Shown one piece after another: positions 16,075 to 29,324 of a DNA stretch of 49,422 nucleotides. This stretch comes from Lama guanicoe (lineage: Eukaryota): contig MU053156.1 in assembly GCA_013239625.1 (NCBI GenBank), forward strand, positions 498,467 through 547,888. The letters are read 5' to 3'. Both the position numbers and the translations under genes were made by a program. How positions within the stretch are numbered: the stretch's first letter is position 1; each line of letters starts with the position of its first letter. The notes beneath the pieces were generated by a model. The model saw only the letters and a program-made list of their open reading frames with translations, had not been told where the DNA came from and ran no database searches.

Positions 16075-18479
16075 TGATAATATTAGGTTTTTAAATCAAA
16101 AAGACTGTGAGGTGAGTTTCCTTGGCTGGTAACATCTGAAACCCACAGCTGGCCTTGTCTATTTCCTACAGCAACACAATGGGATTCTACTGGAAAACAA
16201 ATTGTATAGCAAGACCAGTTAATCTGGCTACACTAAAGTCCCATCAAACTGCTGAGTGGAGTCAGAACTCTTCAAACAGTGCCAAAGATAGCTTTGTGGC
16301 AAGCCACTGAATCACACAGCAGCAAAATAAAAATAAAGGATGACTGACGAACACTTTTGGGTCTCTGTCATGTACTCTGCCAAAGAGCAAAAAACTAGAA
16401 ATATTCCTCAACATATTCCATTAGGAATAGTTCAGAAATAGTTCCCACACTGGATGGGTAAATATTGCTTCAGAGGCTGGGGACTGCTGCTCCCACAAAG
16501 AGGTACCTGAAAATCTTCCTGTTTCCAAGTCTTTAAGATCCAATCATCTGATACGCTGTGCCTTTTGAGAACAAACCAAAGCATTAAGCTTGAGGAACTT
16601 AAATTATTAGAACAAAAAGTATTTTTCAATGTATTTGCTAGTGCTGAATTGGATTATTTTAAATAAATGGAAAATGTTGATGTTTCTCTATTGCACTTGC
16701 TTTGTTCTTTTTGAAGAATGTCTGTAGTAAAGACAAATAACAACAAAACAGAATATGAATGTCTTTTGCAGGTGGACTCCTAGAATTACTCAGAATCGCT
16801 CTGAAGCTGTCTTGTGTTAGCATTCTTCAAGCCAAGAGCACTCAAAGGTAATGAGTCTCTGTACATCTATTACCTAATCAATAAGAAATAGAGCCCCCCG
16901 CACTAATGAGTTGCCATCTCAGCAGAAAGACCTTTATTTTGCTTGGATTGGATTTCCTCATTAGTAAAGTAAATGCAAGAAAGTCTGATTTATCTGGATT
17001 TTTCCCCCACTGAACAAAAAGTTTATTTGGTGAACCTAGAGTTTTATTTTTCATTGTACTGTGTTTTTTAATTAAAACTGGCCAGTGGAACCTCTCTAGC
17101 CCCAAATCACTGTATGTATTAAATTTCAAGGAATCCTAAAGCAACTGGAGAGAATTTCATTTTTAGCAAACTGCAAGGCATTAAAATCAATAAATGGGCT
17201 GAAGATGCAATTAATATGCTAGAAGCCTTTAATGGAAAAAAAGGGAAATTTCATATTAACAACCATTGCTTCTCTCAGTTAAAGAAATTTCTAAGCCTGT
17301 GTTTTACTAAGTAAACCATGTAATCAGGACAATTGAACAGTAGCTGTGTTTTCATTATAGTTAACATTAATTAGTCGGTTTATTTTGGGTGTGGTTATCA
17401 TTAACTTAGAGACTTGGATGCTGTTCCCTGTCCAGCTTCTGTGTATAATTCGTAACCGAGAATGCATTCCCGGGAAGGCTTTTAATCCACCATGTTGCTC
17501 AGTAGCTAATACGAGACAAGGTTATTCCGGGTCTTGCCAGAGACCAGATTCTCCTGTAGTCACCCCCGTCAACTCCTCTTCCATAAAGATGGCAAGAATA
17601 GAGGCATTCAAAAATATTTTGACATTTATTTTGTGCTCTAAAAATACTGATTTGCTTTAGTGATTACAAACCAAGCATAAGAGACTTAAAGTGAAGTGAG
17701 ACGCCGCAAAGCCACAGGGGGCGTGAAGACGGCTTCGCCCCCCCCCACCTCCGGGCCCTGCACAGACAGCAGACTGAAGCGCAGCCCCAGGCTTTCTGAG
17801 AAGGAGACCTGTTTTCGTGTTCAGGAAGTTTGGCCTGAGGGCAGCTTCCTGGTCTAGCACACTTCTGGAGGCTTCTGGAGGAGCCCCCATGGAATGCAGG
17901 CCTGTGGACACCATCTGTGTGTCCCCCCCACTGCCTGGCTCCAGCTCACCAGCACCTCCCAGAAAAGAGCTTATATCTTTGTCTAACACCCCGATTTCTG
18001 CAGCTGCTGCCAGCGGACACCTCTGCATCACTTGCTCTGCAGGCCAGTAGGGCTTCTGCTTGTGTGTCCCCCAAGACTGTAACCAAGGAAGAAAAAGTTG
18101 TTAAACACCTACCACCCCCAAGATGCAGCAAGAAGCAACAGGCCCAGGTGCTCAGGCTCCCCATGAAAGAGGCGCGGTCATCAAAGCGCAGCCTGAGGGG
18201 CAGGCTTCCAACGAGACGCACATCTAAGTGCTGACCGGAAGCCTTTCCAGAGACCTTGGAAGGTGGGCGCCATCTCTCTACCGCACCCACAAAGCCAGTA
18301 TCTTTTGGAAGGGGGCTCTCACGTGTGTCTGGCGCCCCATTTTTTGTGTCTAGCACCACGGTTGTTGTGACTGCTGCACAGGGGGTGCTCCTCGATCTCC
18401 TGGTTCTGGAGGCCAGGGGCTTGGGTCCCACAGGACTGTAACAATCAGAGAGACAGTCTTGCCAGGACACCACCCCCAG

Positions 18480-18631
18480 TGTTACGGAAACGACAGGCCC
18501 GCCAAGAAACAAACACCACTCGAAGGGTTGGAGTACTCAGATTTATTACGCTGGCGGGCTCAGAGGGGCTTCTGCTCCGAAGCTCTGAGCACCTCCAAGA
18601 TGTGTGCATGAGGTTTTATAGGGTAAAGTAC
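18480..18631 (-). mobile_element. ERV LTR fragment (3' part)
   Basis: On -: TATAAAA near 18614-18619, AATAAA at 18542-18547, terminal ...GTAACA at 18480. Confidence 0.6.
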
Positions 18632-19297
18632 AATAGACTTACCCTATAATCCAGCAACCCCACTCCTGGGCATGTATCTGGCGGAAACTCTAATTCAAAA
18701 AGATACATACACTCCAATATTCACAGCAGCACTATTTATGATAGCTAAGACATGGAAAGATAAAGAAATTGTGGTGTGTGTGTGTATGTGTGTGTGTATA
18801 TATATATATAACAGGATACTACTCAGCCATAAAAAAATAAAATAATACCATTTGCAGCAACATGAATGGACCTGCAGATTGTCATATGAAGTGAAGTAAG
18901 CCAGAAAGAGAAAGAAAAATATCATATGATACCACTTACATATGGAACCTAAAGATAAGAGAGAGAAAAATGAACTTATTTACAAAACAGAGACAGATTC
19001 ACAGACATAGAAAACAAACTTATGGTAACTAGGAGGGAAAGGGGGTAGGGAGGAATAAACTGGGAGTTCAAGATTTATAGATACTAACTACTACATACAA
19101 AATAGATAAACAACAAGGTCCTGTTGAATAGCACAGGGAACTATATTCAATACCTTATAATAGCCTATGATAAAAAAATATGAAAAGGAATATATATATA
19201 TTCCTTTTCATATTTTTATATATATATATGAATCACTGTGCTATACACCAGAAATTAACACATTATAAATTGACTATACTTCAATAAATAAATAAAT
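18632..19297 (+). mobile_element. Younger L1 3' end nested in the old L1
   Basis: Same 3' UTR type as 12253-12984 (…tgactatacttcaataaa) with an (AAAT)n tail. Confidence 0.9.
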
Positions 19298-19702
19298 CAG
19301 ACTGCTTGAACAATCATCAAGTTCAAGAGACAGCCAAGAGCTAGGGCAAGGTTGAAGGACAAGGTTCAACTCTTGAAAGAGGCCACTTCTCCAAGACTGA
19401 GAAGGGTAACCATTTTGCCTAATACCTGGCAACAAACACAGAGAATCAAGCAAAATTATGAAACAGAGGAATATGTTCCAAACAAAAGAACAAGATAAAG
19501 CTCTGAAAAACAAAAAAGGAGACAAATATTTACCTGATTAAGAGTTTTAAATAATGATCATAAAGTTGCTCTCTGAAATTGGGAGAATAAACTTAGACAT
19601 TCAACAAAGAGAAAACATAAGACAGTACCAAAAAGAAATCACAGAGATAAAAAATACAATAACTGAATCAAAAAAACGCTACTAGAAGTGTTCAACAACA
19701 GA

Positions 19703-19971
19703 ACTTGTGGAACTAGAGGTAGCACGGCAGGTCCTTCTCAATTACCAGGGGCTCCTCCATGGGACCATACCGCTTCACCACACAGCCGTTCTTGTCAATG
19801 AGAAACTTGGTGAAGTTCCATTTGATGGCATTTCCCAGGACGCCCTTCCCCTTGGGCTGAACTTTCATCCACTTCCACAGTGGGTGGGCATCGTCCCCAT
19901 TGACACAGATCTTGCTGAACAAATCGAATCTGACGTTATAGCCAGCGGCGGACTCTGATTTCAGCACTACT
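19703..19971 (-). pseudogene. GPX4: GPX4 processed fragment (C-terminal ~85 codons plus ~10 nt of 3' UTR)
   Basis: [78 protein letters not shown]; intronless; no Sec codon region, SECIS or poly-A. Confidence 0.95.
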
Positions 19972-19982
19972 GATCAATTTTA

Positions 19983-21756
19983 CAGGAGGGCGGGGCTCAC
20001 GGCTGAGCGAGGCTCAGGGTGCAGGGGTGCGGCTGAGGCGCTCTGGGCCCTCGCGGAGCCCGCGGAGGCCGAGGGGGACCCCGAAGTGCGCGACAGCAGC
20101 TGCGTCATGAAACAGGCCCAGTCCTACTTCGGTTCGGTGAACGCCTCCTACAACGCCATCGTCGACTGCGGAAACTGCTCCAGGCTCTTCCACGCGCAGA
20201 GACTGACCAACACTAACCTCTTCGTGGTGGCCGAGAAGCCACTGTGCAGCCAGTGGGAGGCTGGCCGGCTGCTGCAGAAAGAGACTCCCTCGGACGGCCC
20301 GGAGCAATGTGAACTGGTGCAGAGACCGCGATACCGCAGAGGCCCGCACATCTGCTTCGACTACAACGCCACGGGAGATGCCCCAGACTGCGGCCGCGGG
20401 GCCTCCTTCCCGCCGTCATTGGGCGTCCTGGTGTCCCTGCAGCTGCTGCTCCTACTGGGCCTGCCTCCCCGGCCGGCCGCAGCCTCAAGTCCACGCCCAC
20501 GCCTCTCGCCGCCTCTGAGTGCTCCCTCCCTGCCCAGGCCTCCCTGCCCGTCCCCTGCTCCCCCGCCCCACACTCCCCGCCTTAGAGCTTCACCCCCTCC
20601 CTCACTGAAGGACCTGAGCACGCAGGGCCCCCAAGAGTCTGCACCTGGTGGGCAGGGAGGTGGATTCCCAAAGGAGAGCGTTTCAAGTCTTTGGCCCCCA
20701 AGCCACATCTAGCGCCTGAACTGTCGAAAGTGTCCCAAGACCCCTCATTCCCACTTGACTTACTCGCCTCTCCCCCCAGGACTGGGCCAGGGAAGACACA
20801 GTACTGGTGCCAAACCAGGCCTCCACTGCCCACCCTGCCCTGAGGCTCCGTTTGTGTGGGAGGCCTAGGTCTTGCCCCAGCTGAACTCCTCTAACCTGGT
20901 TCTTCTGCCCTACCCAGGACCAAATCTGGATTCCCTGGGAATCATGGAGGAAGTTGAGATGGGCAGTTTGAGGCCTGTGCATCCCAGCTTAAGTCCTAGC
21001 AGAAGAGAGGTCCTTGGGCAGCCCTCCTGCCTCTCTCACGCCTACAGCCACCTCTCCCTCACCAAGCTCTGCAGGTTGCAGGACAGTGACTGGCTCAGAC
21101 ACAACCCCATACACATCTGGAGCCCTGAGGGCAGAAACTGGACTCACATTAAACACATCCAGGAGGACACACACAAACACAGACGTGCACACACACACAC
21201 ACACAAACACACACATACCGTGGGGTGGGGTGGGAGCTGGGGCTCACAAAGCCTTACACAGGATGAAGTGTTGGTGGGAGGGTTGGCACATGCACACTCC
21301 ATCTCCTGCTCACCATCCGCCTCTAATCTGACCTGCAGCCCAGCTGGTCCTCCGTCTCTAAAGCTGAATGTCAAACAGTGCCAAATGCTGGGGCAAGGGG
21401 TGAAGACCCCTCTGTCCCACCCTACCAGTGTCCCCTAAATGCCCTCAGTCCACCAGGTGCTCATTGTAACCATTTCTCACTACTGTCAGGCCTTCAGTGG
21501 GACCACATGCCACTGCCTGCACCCCTCGGCAGAGGAACTCTCACCGGACATTGCCCCTTGCCTTAGCGGGGTGACTTGATCACTCCTAGCTGGGTCATCC
21601 CACCCCCAGTCTGGCCCACACTCAGGCCTGTGCCCACTTCCACACACACTCCCTTGCCAAACTGCTCCTCCCTGCTGAACACAACACTTGCACACACATA
21701 AACACATATACACACTCTGCACACACACAGGCTGGGCCTGGGCTCATAAAAAAAAA
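19983..21756 (+). pseudogene. CACNA2D2: CACNA2D2 retrocopy (delta-2 C-terminus, 3' UTR, A-tail), 5'-truncated
   Basis: [54 protein letters not shown]...[18 protein letters not shown], a frameshift, then [12 protein letters not shown] (stop 20516-20518); intronless coding part; A-run at 21748-21756. Confidence 0.93.
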
Positions 21757-24700
21757 TTAATTAAGCAAAGGGAAAGGATCAGAGATACTGAAGACAGGGC
21801 AGTGGAACTCACACAGAGTAGCAGAAACAAACAAAAAAATTAAGTGAAGATAGCTTAAGGGCTATGGGAACAATCAAGCAAACTGACATTCACATGATAG
21901 GGACCCAGAAGGATGAGAGTGAAATAAAAGGGCAGAAAATATATTTGAAGAAATGATGGCCTAAAACATCCTTAATCTGGGGAAGGAAACAAACATTCAG
22001 ATCCAGGAAGCCCAGGGAGATCCAAACAAAATGAACCCCAAAAATTTTACACCAAGAAACACTATAATTAAATTGTCAGAATTTAAAGATAGGCAATCTT
22101 AAATGAGCAAGACAAAAACAACTTTTTATGTACAAGAGAACTCCTATAAGACTATCATCAAATTTTTCAGACCAGAAGGGAGTGGCAGAATTTATTCAAA
22201 GTGCTGAAAGGAAAAAAATTCCAACCAAGAATACGCTACACAGCAAAGTTATCATTCAGAATTGAAGGAACGATAAAGAGCTTTGCAGACAAGCAAAACT
22301 AAAGAGTCATCTCCAGTAAACCACCCTTATAAGAAACTTTAAAGGGTCTTCTTCAAGCTGAAAAGAAAGGTTGATAATTTGTAATAAAAAAAATACAAAA
22401 GTATAACTCTCACTGGTAATGACAAATACATGGTAGAGATAGTGGATTAATCACATATGAAGCTGGTGTGAAGAGTAAAAGGAAGAAGTGAAAATAACGA
22501 TAAGTACACTAATTAGTTAAGTGACACACAAAATGAAAAGATATAAAATGTGATACAAAAAATGTAGCAGAGGATGTAAAAATACTGAGTTTTAGAATGT
22601 TTAAAGTTGTTATTATCAACATGAAATAGACTGTTACAAATATAGGTTGTTATATGTAGGCCTCACAGCAACCACAAAGCAAAAAATCTACAGGAGACAC
22701 ACAAAAGATAATCAAAAAGGAATCTAAGTGTCACACTAAGTAAAGTCACCAAACCACGAAGAAGAGAGCAAGAGAAAAAGAAACAGAGAAACTACAAAAC
22801 AGCCAGAAAAAAATGAACAAAATGGTAGTAAGTACATACTTCTCAGTAATTACTTTAAATGAAAATGGACAAAATTCTCCAATCAAAAGACATAAAGTGG
22901 CTGCATGGATAAAAAACGAGACCCACCTATACGCCGTCTACAAGACACTCACTTCAGATATAAGGACAAACACAGACTGAAAGCAAAGGGATGGAATAAG
23001 ATGTTCCATGCAAATGGAAACCAAAGAAAGTTGTATAGCTATACTTACAACAGACAAAATAGACTTTAAAACAAATGCTATAACAAAAGACAAAGAGGGG
23101 AATTCAATAATGATGAAGGGGTCAATCCAACAAGAAGACATAACATTTATAAATAATTATGCATCCAATATGGGAGCACCTAAATATATATAGCAAATAT
23201 TAACAGACCTAAAGGGAGAGATAGAGAGCAATATAGTAACTCTTGGGAAATTCAATATCACACTTACATTAATGGATAGATCACCCAGGCAAAAAAAATC
23301 AGTAAGGAACATCAGCCTTACGTGACACATTAGATCAGATTCACTTTAATAGCAGAACACTCCATCCAAAAGCAACAGAATACACATTCTTCTCAAGTTT
23401 TCATGGAATATTGTCCAGGACAGATCATATATCAGACCACAAAAAAGGTCTTAATATATTTTAAAAGACTAAATCATATCAAGCATCTTTTCCAACCACA
23501 ATGATATGAAACCAAAAGAAAACTGGAAAAATCACAAATATTTGGAAATTAAACAACAGGTACTGAACAATCAATGGGTCAATAAAGAAATATTAAAAAT
23601 ACCTGAGACAAATGGAAACACAACATACCAACATTTATGGGATGCATCAAAAACAGCTCGAAGAAGGAAGTTCATAGTGACACAGGCCCATCTCAAGAAA
23701 CAAGAAAAATCTCAATTCACCTAGCTAACCTTACGCCTCGAGAAAATAGGAAAAGAAGAACCAACGAAACCTAAAGTTAGTAAAAGGAAGGAAAAACAGA
23801 AATCAGTGTGGAAATAAGTGAAATGGAGACTAAAAAGATCAATGAAATTTAGAGCTGGGTCTTTGAAAAGCTAAACCAAACTGATAAACTTTACCTAGAC
23901 TCACCACAAAAAAAAAAAAAAGATAGAGACAGAATCAAATAAAATCAGAAATGAACGAAGAGATTACAACTGACACCACAGAAATACAAATGACCATATG
24001 AGACACTGTGGATAATTACATACCAATAAATTGGATAACCTAGGAGAAATGGATAAATTCTTAAAAACATACAATCTTCCCAGACTGAACCATGAAGAAA
24101 TAGAAATTATGAATAAACTAGTAAGGAGATTGAATCACTATTCCAAAACACCCCCCCAAAATAGAAGTCCAGGACAAGATGACCTCACTGGTGAAGCCAA
24201 ACATTTAAAAGAATTAATAACTATCCTTCTCAAACTCTTCCATAACACTGAGGAGGAGAGAATGATTCCAAACTCACTTTACAAGGCAGGATGACCCTGA
24301 TACCAAAACCAGACAAAGATATCACACAAAAAAAGAAAATTACATGCCAATATTGACGATAACATAGATGCAAAATCCTCGACAAAACATTAGCAAACCA
24401 AATTCAACAATATATTACAAAATTGTGCACCACGACCCAGTGGAATTTATTCCAGGGTCGCATTGATGGTTCGACATGAGCAAATCAATCAGTGTGATCC
24501 AGGACATTGACAAAATGAAGGCCAAAAATTGTATGATCATCTCTACAGATGCAGAAAAAAGCATTTGACAAAATTTAACATCCATTTAAGATAAAAACAC
24601 TCAACAAAGTGAATGAAGCTAAACTATACTATACACAAAAATCAACTCAAAATGGATTTAAGACTTGAAAGTAAGATGTGAAACCATAAAACTCCTAGAA

Positions 24701-26650: not shown

Positions 26651-29324
26651 CTATTTTAGGCAAGACCGGATGCATTCATACAGTTTCAGAAGCACGTGGC
26701 AGAGGCATCGTCTTGCATAAGTCTGCAGAAGTCCTCTTATGACACATCCTTTGGGTTCAAAGGAGAAATGGAGAGATAAGGGCTCTGAACATGATGCATA
26801 AAAAGTATGTACCTCAAAATAAGTCTGCCTGGGGCTGCCAGCGTTGCAAACGTTTTAAATTGTAGTAAGTCACCACGTCTCAAATGCCACTCGTGGTGAG
26901 AGGCGACAATATGAAAAGGTAAATTTTTATCGCCCGGATATGATGAGTGTCTCAGGCTGGAAGAGGTCTCCCGGGAGTTTGCTGGCCAGATGTCAGCCTC
27001 AGACAACTGGCTTAAGCCTGACCGCGCCTAGAGCAGCGGGAATCAGGTTTCCCGTGTCTGCCCTCCTTTCCTTCAGATATCGCTGTCCTCTCTGCTTTGC
27101 CAACGTTAAGTAATGGGTTCTGGCAACATGCGTCTGCCCGGGACTACTTCATGAGGCATTGGCAACGTGTGTTTCAGTTTGAAATGTCATGAGTGAGCGT
27201 CACTGTGTGATAATTATGTGAGAGCTGGGAAGCCCTTAACAGTGAGGCACATCAGAGCCCGGAAGGACCTGTACCCGTTCCAGGGAACTTCAGCCTGGGT
27301 GCAGCAACCAAAGCACTCTGGACCCAATTTGGGATGGGAATAGAGGAGGGCGTGAGGTTTCAGTCTTGAATGCAGAGTGGTCTTGGAATCTTTTAAAATC
27401 ACATACTGTTTAGGCATATTTCTGAATCTTCTGATACAGAACATTCACCCGACAGCCTTCCGGGGGCACTCCATAAAGGTGTGGTGTGCTGGAGGTGGCC
27501 TCGGGAAGGCGGGGGCAGGACTTCCCGGCGGGATGCTGATCATCTTTCCAAAGGAGGACAGACATGCCTCTGGGTAACCAAGGGTTTAATGATCAAGTCC
27601 AATGGGTTAAGAAGTGAAAAAGCTAAGCAGTGTTAGTACAGAACTGTTGTGGTTTCATACGGAAGGATTACTGCTAAATACTGCTCATCTCTTGTCTTAT
27701 TCCCTAGCCTTTCCCGCAAAATTGTAATAAATTATCTGACTGTGAGTGTGAGAACAGGATTCAGTATTCAATCCATTTCCTTTCTTCCCGTTCCACATGG
27801 CAGAGCAGAGTGGAGTCTCTCTATAGACCATAAATCTTCCTAGAGAAGTACTGGCAGTGACAAGGTGGGTAAGGAAAGCTGGAAGGCATGTTTTTGCTTT
27901 ATCCATAATTAAAGGGGCATTTGATTCCTGCTCGCTAGACTCATTTTTCATTTGGTTCAAAACTCAGGTAGAAAAAGCTAGCTGTTATATACTGGACGCT
28001 CGCAAACTCTGTACATTAGCTGTTTGATAAACAACTCCTTTAAACAATCCAAGAAAGAAAGTAGTATGTGTCCAAGAAATGTTGGCATGAATAAAGAGCT
28101 GTGATGGCTGAGAGTGAAGCAGATCCTCTTGGTTGCTTCATGGACAGAAAATGTTACTGAGGGAGTAAAACACGAAGTAGTCCTTGAAGAGAGGAAGAAT
28201 TTACACATGAGGAACGAGGGGAAGAAACAACCACATACAAGCAGTAGCATCCAAGCACCTGAACAAAAGCTTGAAGACATGAGCTTACGGGGAATACCTC
28301 ACTATGGAGCAAAATACAGTTAAGTTTGATTAACACACAGCAGGGTCTGGAAAACCAGCTCAGCCTAAGGACACTGAAGTTTGCTCAATGAAAAATAAGG
28401 AACCACTAAGGACACATCAACTGTCTCAAATGTAGTCAGAGTTTATCTTTGGATATCTGTGAAATGTTAAAGGAAGTCCTTATGAGAATGTATTTACTGG
28501 ACATGCATAGTGAAGCTGGAATAATATAAACAAAAATAACATGGCTCATGTTTAAAGGTACTGAAATTCATAAAACTGTGTTGTTTTAATATAGAATGAT
28601 CAATTTCATACAACTGAATATTATGTAGCCATTAAGATGGTGGCAGAAGAAAATGCTGAAGATATGATAAATATTAAAAGCTGATTAAAATATTAATTAG
28701 AGTAGAATCTCAGTTTTTTGAAAGAAAAGAGAAGAAAGAAAATACATGTATATGTGTATATAAATGCAACAATTGAATATGGAAAAATATAAGATGATTT
28801 TTTCTGGGGTTAATCTTATGATCAGTTTCTTCTGTTGTTTTCAAATTCCCCATGAGTTCATAACGCTGGAACAGCTTGTGCAACACTCTTCAAGGCACAA
28901 AGAACTACTAGTTTAAGAGCCATTTTTATATCTGATTTTGGATGCCAGTTGATGCCTTTCTTACTACTATATATTTCTAGCAACTCCTGTAGGTATATAT
29001 TAGTGATCGTAGTAGAAAAATGATGGCTTACATGCATTTATGCAGTGCTTTATAACTGATACACATTTTCAGGTGGCACACAATGACTCCTAGGCCACTG
29101 TGTATATTTGGCTCCATGCCAATAACCAACCATGTGCTTGAAGAAATTGTATTCCAGAGAAAAATTCACATCTCATACAAATACTTCCTTTCATGTACCT
29201 GTGAAACGTGGGCTTTCCCAGAGATCATGGCCCAATGGATTTTATCCGTGTAAGTTAAGAACCCTGTTAATATCAAATTATTGCTAAGTCCTTGAAAGTA
29301 ACAAGGAATATGGTGCAAAGGGCA

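Follow-up and report, generated by a model that had tools for sequence, protein, structure and literature searches.

The 49,422-nucleotide (nt) stretch of the guanaco (Lama guanicoe) genome analysed here, called the window from now on (contig MU053156.1 of assembly GCA_013239625.1, positions 498,467 to 547,888 of the forward strand), contains an old LINE-1 (L1) element whose first open reading frame (ORF1) is interrupted by pieces of two other genes, GPX4 and CACNA2D2. The decayed L1 lies on the + strand and spans positions 19300 to at least 22375. Read from the sequence, its left flank ends at 19702 (...caacaacaga), L1 sequence resumes at 21757 (ttaattaagcaaaggg...) and the insert between them (19703-21756) measures 2054 nt. 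The change is visible in base composition, since the GC fraction climbs from about 0.3 in the L1 to 0.5-0.73 across 19700-21750. From left to right the insert consists of an antisense GPX4 piece, 11 nt, a sense 3' piece of CACNA2D2 and nine A. The two gene pieces are arranged head to head (5'-to-5') with each RNA 3' end abutting one flank, which is one of the four possible orientation combinations, and neither L1 nor other host sequence is found between them. The comparisons described below support the view that both are reverse-transcribed copies of two unrelated cellular RNAs. The insert has no evident function for the host.

The GPX4 piece (19703-19971, - strand) carries the last ~85 codons of the gene, the stop codon (19713-19715) and only 10 nt of 3' untranslated region (UTR) (19703-19712) before the L1 flank begins. 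A minus-strand open frame runs from 19713 to 19973, and its residues 7-86 match the GPX4 chains of the PDB (E=7e-51). The closest database match is GPX4 of Camelus dromedarius (P0122), with 77 of 80 residues identical. There is a 2-nt deletion between 19955 and 19956, beyond which the codons SSAEI (SNAEI in camel) extend the match to 19971. Mis-predicted database isoforms allow the exon edges of the gene to be placed before EPGS, after ...GILG and between ...NFTK and FLIDK. Because the piece crosses the last two of these inferred borders uninterrupted, with the introns absent there, it appears as a spliced copy, and it starts three codons inside the exon that begins with EPGS. It has no A-tail, since no T-run is found on the + strand next to 19703. 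Among the 80 GPX4 loci that came back from a metagenome scan, none exceeded 63% identity and none was mammalian.

The CACNA2D2 piece (19983-21747, + strand) is followed directly by the nine A (21748-21756). Its frame 19984-20478 gave 223 protein matches at E<=1e-10; among the 120 listed, every one was named CACNA2D2 or unnamed, the best-scoring ones, from many mammals, having 87-89% identity over 76-81% of the query. The Pfam family VGCC_alpha2 matches the same frame at 1.9e-41. The coding part (20053-20518) comprises the last ~155 codons of the gene with the stop at 20516-20518. When it is compared with Camelus bactrianus (P0051, P0114), about 155 codons show 10 substitutions, a codon is missing near 20220, and a 1-nt frameshift falls near 20465-20478, after which the tail is identical to the C-terminus of the camel protein. 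A 29-residue insert of P0051 and a block skipped in P0114 mark the positions of introns that are absent from the piece. The remainder (20519-21747; GC 0.58, CpG observed/expected ratio 0.17) was assigned to the 3'UTR by contiguity only. Two (CA)n-rich, microsatellite-like stretches are found in this 3'UTR copy, at 21160-21220 and 21690-21730.

At its 5' end the CACNA2D2 piece departs from the mature transcript. Upstream of 20053 it reads ...GAAEALWAL and not the canonical ...YHSWFQ, resembling the intron-reading isoforms of donkey (P0001) and goat (P0002: LWALADPAEAEG). Judged by this resemblance, the first ~45-70 nt of the piece are intron sequence from upstream of the AEPAEAEG exon. We have annotated 19983-20052 as intron-derived, with isoform similarity supporting an intron from about 20008. 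Since the copy starts inside an intron, the CACNA2D2 template would have been incompletely spliced. Parent introns are missing from both pieces, as in processed pseudogenes, with one upstream CACNA2D2 intron partly retained. These comparisons drew on database isoforms (CACNA2D2 of donkey, goat and Bactrian camel X4, and the dromedary GPX4 model) that extend into introns or leave out the selenocysteine exon. Such models are artefacts of annotation, yet they document the intron sequence and the exon borders used here.

The 11 nt between the two pieces (gatcaatttta, 19972-19982) may be either filler or further CACNA2D2 intron sequence, and the same may hold for the whole of 19972-20007 as intron. 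As the start of a GPX4 exon they were ruled out by the isoform-derived exon borders, given that the GPX4 piece begins three codons into the EPGS exon and the next 11 nt are consequently not part of it. When the whole window was searched allowing one mismatch, the closest other copy was found at 28598 only, so there was no second copy nearby to serve as template. The nine A at the opposite end of the CACNA2D2 piece are either what is left of a poly(A) tail or an A-run that lay inside the template. Eleven variants of the poly(A) signal hexamer were searched and none was found at the usual distance; the only variant present was CATAAA, starting at 21697 and 21745, i.e. 51 and 3 nt upstream of the A-run. 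The run may thus not be a true poly(A) tail.

Most of this structure had been recognised in an earlier sequence-only reading of the window, all of whose elements are present. The limits that it gave for the L1 ORF1 (stopping at ~19702 and resuming at ~21757-21780) agree with ours apart from small shifts, as does its statement that nothing of the host separates the two cDNAs, and the antisense, intronless GPX4 piece ending ~10 nt past the stop without poly(A) is there as described. Its sense CACNA2D2 cDNA with an A-tail holds for the strand and the 3' A-run and has to be amended at the 5' end, which is intronic, and for the tail, which may not be poly(A). Similarly, the 11-nt linker that it proposed is present, and cannot be shown to be untemplated; it may be intron.

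The interrupted frame of the host L1 allowed the target to be reconstructed. The left part (19300-19702, CpG observed/expected 0.08) takes in the final part of the 5'UTR together with the N-terminal coiled-coil region of ORF1, ending in ...LLEVFNNR, while the right part (21757-22375) continues with LIKQRERIRDTEDRAVELTQ... and then an RRM-like domain, with stops and frameshifts. The read-through of 21758-22375 matched Pfam Transposase_22 (E=1.1e-6) and, in an exhaustive protein search, 2009 representative proteins at E<=1e-3; the decayed ORF1 frame had given no match in a word-index search of proteins. A BLASTN comparison of both flanks against the window gave self-matches only, and hence no L1 reference within the window. 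Among the 150 ORF1 protein (ORF1p) matches listed, four spanned the site (P0275, P0341, P0357 and P0358), all of them L1 ORF1p by Pfam, and the left flank aligns to all four. The two flank peptides were joined end to end and aligned to these four homologs, separate local alignments of the flanks being unsuitable since the low-complexity, K/E-rich sequence misleads them. In three of the four the ORF1 frame is gapless over the junction (...FNNR|LIKQRERIRDTEDR... versus ...FNSR|LDEAEECVIVLEDK...), and in the fourth there is a 6-residue gap just left of it. The continuity of the frame indicates that no duplication or loss of at least 3 nt accompanied the insertion, and the co-linear target argues for one event. 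The sequence-only reading, which had asked for the flanks to be aligned to L1 and had seen no obvious target-site duplication (TSD), is supported here too: the best local alignment of 60 nt from each side was matched by 333 of 500 shuffles. The site before the insertion would have read ...ACAGA|TTAAT..., that is, GA/TTAA against the cleavage consensus TT/AAAA of the L1 endonuclease (PMC13174262, PMC1920257). Both strands are off this consensus at the break, and a primer on the bottom strand would end in ...TTAA-3'.

The coding parts of the two pieces are free of stops apart from their own, and their CpG observed/expected ratios are 0.51 and 0.84 versus 0.08-0.10 in the L1 flanks; both parts look younger than the host L1. 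As a rough estimate, a change of 2-3% per nonsynonymous site would correspond to an age on the order of ten million to a few tens of millions of years. Divergence of each part from its parent gene, the comparison recommended in the sequence-only reading, could be followed at the protein level: relative to camel there are 4 amino-acid changes in 85 codons of GPX4 and 10 in about 155 of CACNA2D2, a similar proportion (Fisher p=0.78) in a comparison of little power. Nothing points to two ages for the two pieces, and the CpG-rich CACNA2D2 piece is expected to change faster than the GPX4 piece.

The reading that we favour, and to which we would give an even chance, is a single insertion at one break in the old L1 ORF1, in which two unrelated RNAs were copied in a twin-priming geometry by an endonuclease-independent, repair-type process. 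Reverse transcription would be primed from both sides of the break: inside the GPX4 mRNA, 10 nt past the stop, by the left end (top strand, ...ACAGA-3'), and on the A-run or poly(A) of the incompletely spliced CACNA2D2 transcript by the right end (bottom strand, ...TTAATTAA-3'). The two cDNAs would extend toward each other and then be joined 5'-to-5', leaving 11-36 nt of uncertain source between them. Most likely, the break was blunt and the L1 endonuclease had no part in making it, and the reverse transcriptase was presumably the L1 ORF2p. Priming by DNA ends, the order of the steps, the enzyme and the kind of break are all what we infer. A pre-existing break is favoured because the hallmarks of the L1 endonuclease, a TSD and a TT/AAAA site, are missing, and the intron-bearing template would fit priming in the nucleus.

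The geometry itself is that of L1 twin priming, reportedly set out by Ostertag and Kazazian in 2001. A description of the process is also found in a recent preprint (10.1101/2024.08.27.596794). As in the classical case, our insert has an inverted 5' segment, whose RNA 3' end lies at the upstream flank, and a 3' segment in direct orientation that ends in A, and two DNA ends would have acted as primers. In contrast to it, two different RNAs are involved, neither of them L1, and there is neither a TSD around the insert nor a TT/AAAA site. The endonuclease-independent insertions described as non-classical L1 insertions (NCLI) resemble the insert in the missing TSD and the off-consensus site. They are recognised by 3' truncation, lack of a TSD, lack of poly(A) and an off-consensus site, and have been read as the repair of pre-existing breaks (PMC1920257). 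All four features are found at the GPX4 end of the insert, a 3'-truncated copy without A-tail, and two of them (no TSD, off-consensus site) at the CACNA2D2 end, where the nine A may or may not be a tail and the copy may or may not be 3'-truncated. Unlike NCLI, the insert derives from cellular mRNA templates, has an A-run at one end and shows no target deletion. Internal rearrangement was reported for only 2 of 21 NCLI loci (PMC1920257).

The first alternative, the model of the sequence-only reading, is classical target-primed reverse transcription (TPRT) dependent on the L1 endonuclease, with twin priming on a second RNA. The endonuclease would nick the bottom strand, where the CACNA2D2 poly(A) would be primed, and the top strand, cut opposite, would prime inside the GPX4 mRNA. 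This would produce the same geometry and would account for the A-run at the 3' end. The mechanism has also been put forward before, to explain antisense segments of tRNA halves, 5S, U5 and some mRNAs that are joined to LINE-1 (PMC13174262, Cell Genomics 2026). In those chimeras, too, an unrelated second RNA is found in antisense orientation on the 5' side of the primary copy, and the antisense mRNA segments are without first exons and without splicing features, as in our case (PMC13174262). They differ in that their primary copy is a LINE-1 and here an mRNA, and in that TSDs of at least 7 bp were a condition of their selection, with endonuclease motifs often present; both are missing in our case (PMC13174262). 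The TSD is absent, GA/TTAA fits TT/AAAA at the last two positions only, the primer would end in ...TTAA-3' and not in T, and there is no poly(A) signal at the normal distance. We consider an endonuclease-dependent origin unlikely. Of the earlier proposal of a single event with two unrelated templates by L1 twin priming, what persists is the two RNAs and the geometry, and the co-linear L1 and the similar decay speak for its single event; its L1-endonuclease side finds no support, the TSD being missing and the site reading GA/TTAA.

A second alternative dispenses with priming by DNA ends and supposes that two ready-made, free cDNAs were captured by end joining at one break. Such capture has been documented at Cas9 breaks in mouse zygotes, where spliced mRNA copies, with several fragments per break, were recovered; the gene copies had no poly(A) and the retrotransposon captures no TSD, except for one of 4 bp (PMC4516963). 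The insert shares with these products the spliced mRNA copies, the several fragments at one break and the short stretches of uncertain origin at junctions, here the nucleotides at the inner junction, and is unlike them in being a natural insertion under four organism labels and not the result of laboratory Cas9 cuts (PMC4516963). Random ligation, however, would give outward 3' ends in only one of four cases, and would have to place the A-run exactly at the flank, so we regard this origin as improbable.

We attach a similarly low probability to two separate events, in which the CACNA2D2 retrocopy would have inserted first and a GPX4 fragment been captured afterwards, precisely at the 5' junction of that retrocopy, or in the opposite order. 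Nested insertions are common, another L1 fragment lies just upstream in the host L1, and the age test is weak. Nevertheless, a second break would have to hit the very junction without gain or loss of an L1 codon, the pieces have neither L1 nor other host sequence between them, the GPX4 piece has neither an A-tail nor a TSD of its own, and both pieces have decayed similarly.

It is also conceivable that only one RNA was copied, an intron-retaining transcript whose CACNA2D2 intron upstream of the AEPAEAEG exon already included a GPX4 fragment in antisense orientation. The CACNA2D2 piece does begin in the intron and 19972-20007 is of uncertain source. Against this, the prior is very low, the odd GPX4 fragment is only relocated, and the copy would have to stop exactly at the end of that fragment, 10 nt past the GPX4 stop; we consider it very improbable.

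An assembly artefact, i.e. a chimeric join of separate loci, is hardly credible. In a public run index, 14 runs from several studies, carrying four organism labels, contain 0.89-0.94 of the 31-mers sampled from 19560-21900 (the run with the highest share may be the source sample of the assembly), both pieces have pseudogene-type lesions and the L1 frame resumes exactly, even if word shares of this size leave room for missing junction words. Template switching and RNA ligation, which are known from chimeric retrogenes of the U6/L1 type (PMC13174262, PMC6789731) and likewise bring two RNAs into one insertion, were rejected because the parts of those retrogenes have the same orientation and ours lie on opposite strands.

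Several points weigh against the endonuclease-independent single insertion that we prefer. The nine A at the CACNA2D2 end are what ordinary poly(A)-primed TPRT is expected to leave, and blunt endonuclease-dependent insertions at off-consensus sites do occur. The codon-level test of the target is blind to a TSD or deletion of 1-2 nt, and only 14 amino-acid changes went into the age comparison. The 11-36 nt between the pieces may be filler or intron, the A-run may or may not be templated, no empty orthologous site stands behind the reading of a single insertion, and the word shares of 0.89-0.94 in public runs need not include the junction words.

Other features of the neighbourhood were noted. 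Downstream, the host L1 may continue into ORF2, to judge by similarity; none of the six + strand ORF fragments there gave a significant Pfam family. Directly upstream of the start of the host ORF1, positions 18640-19296 (+ strand) contain a 5'-truncated fragment resembling an L1 3' end, with what we take to be sequence like the C-terminal part of ORF2 and an (AAAT)n-like end. It is probably a nested insertion in the 5'UTR of the host L1. Within it, 19170-19221 form a near-perfect palindrome of 52 nt, whose two arms of 26 nt are 96% complementary and adjoin without spacer, followed by (TA)n. Further upstream, a GC-rich block (0.55-0.62) at 17700-18600 may be the host L1 5'UTR or a long terminal repeat. 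Finally, six RNA or RNA-like runs (X15-X20), some of them reproductive-system metatranscriptomes, hold 0.25-0.31 of the sampled 31-mers of 19560-21900. These words could come from near-identical parent mRNAs or from transcription of the locus, and are evidence for neither expression nor parent similarity.

The idea of twin priming on a second RNA, put forward in the sequence-only reading, had already been proposed (PMC13174262), and the capture of several cDNAs at one break had been demonstrated (PMC4516963), so that both are already in print. In tumours, the cDNAs of two synchronous events have been found joined, including a processed pseudogene with an L1 (preprint 10.1101/2024.08.27.596794). 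The insertion of two RNAs described here is rare, yet of a kind already described. A head-to-head pair of two mRNAs fixed in a germline did not turn up in our literature search, which was not exhaustive.

As a natural case of two unrelated cellular RNAs being copied into a single break, the locus is a clean one, and the intact L1 frame on both sides pins the target to the codon, something rarely possible in old insertions. A narrower claim, to which we would give slightly less than an even chance, is that under several species labels we see a natural case of a break not made by the endonuclease, both ends of which primed different cellular RNAs, one of them a nuclear, incompletely spliced pre-mRNA, with no L1 sequence, TSD or endonuclease motif. 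If true, this would be germline evidence for an mRNA-mRNA "twin-primed" break repair known until now only from cases with L1 partners, from tumours or from Cas9 cuts. If the junctions at base level confirm end priming without the endonuclease, they would point to a repair-type reverse transcription of ordinary, even unspliced, transcripts in the mammalian germline, and genome-wide counts could then be based on a search for mRNA pairs that lie head to head, have their 3' ends outward and lack a TSD.

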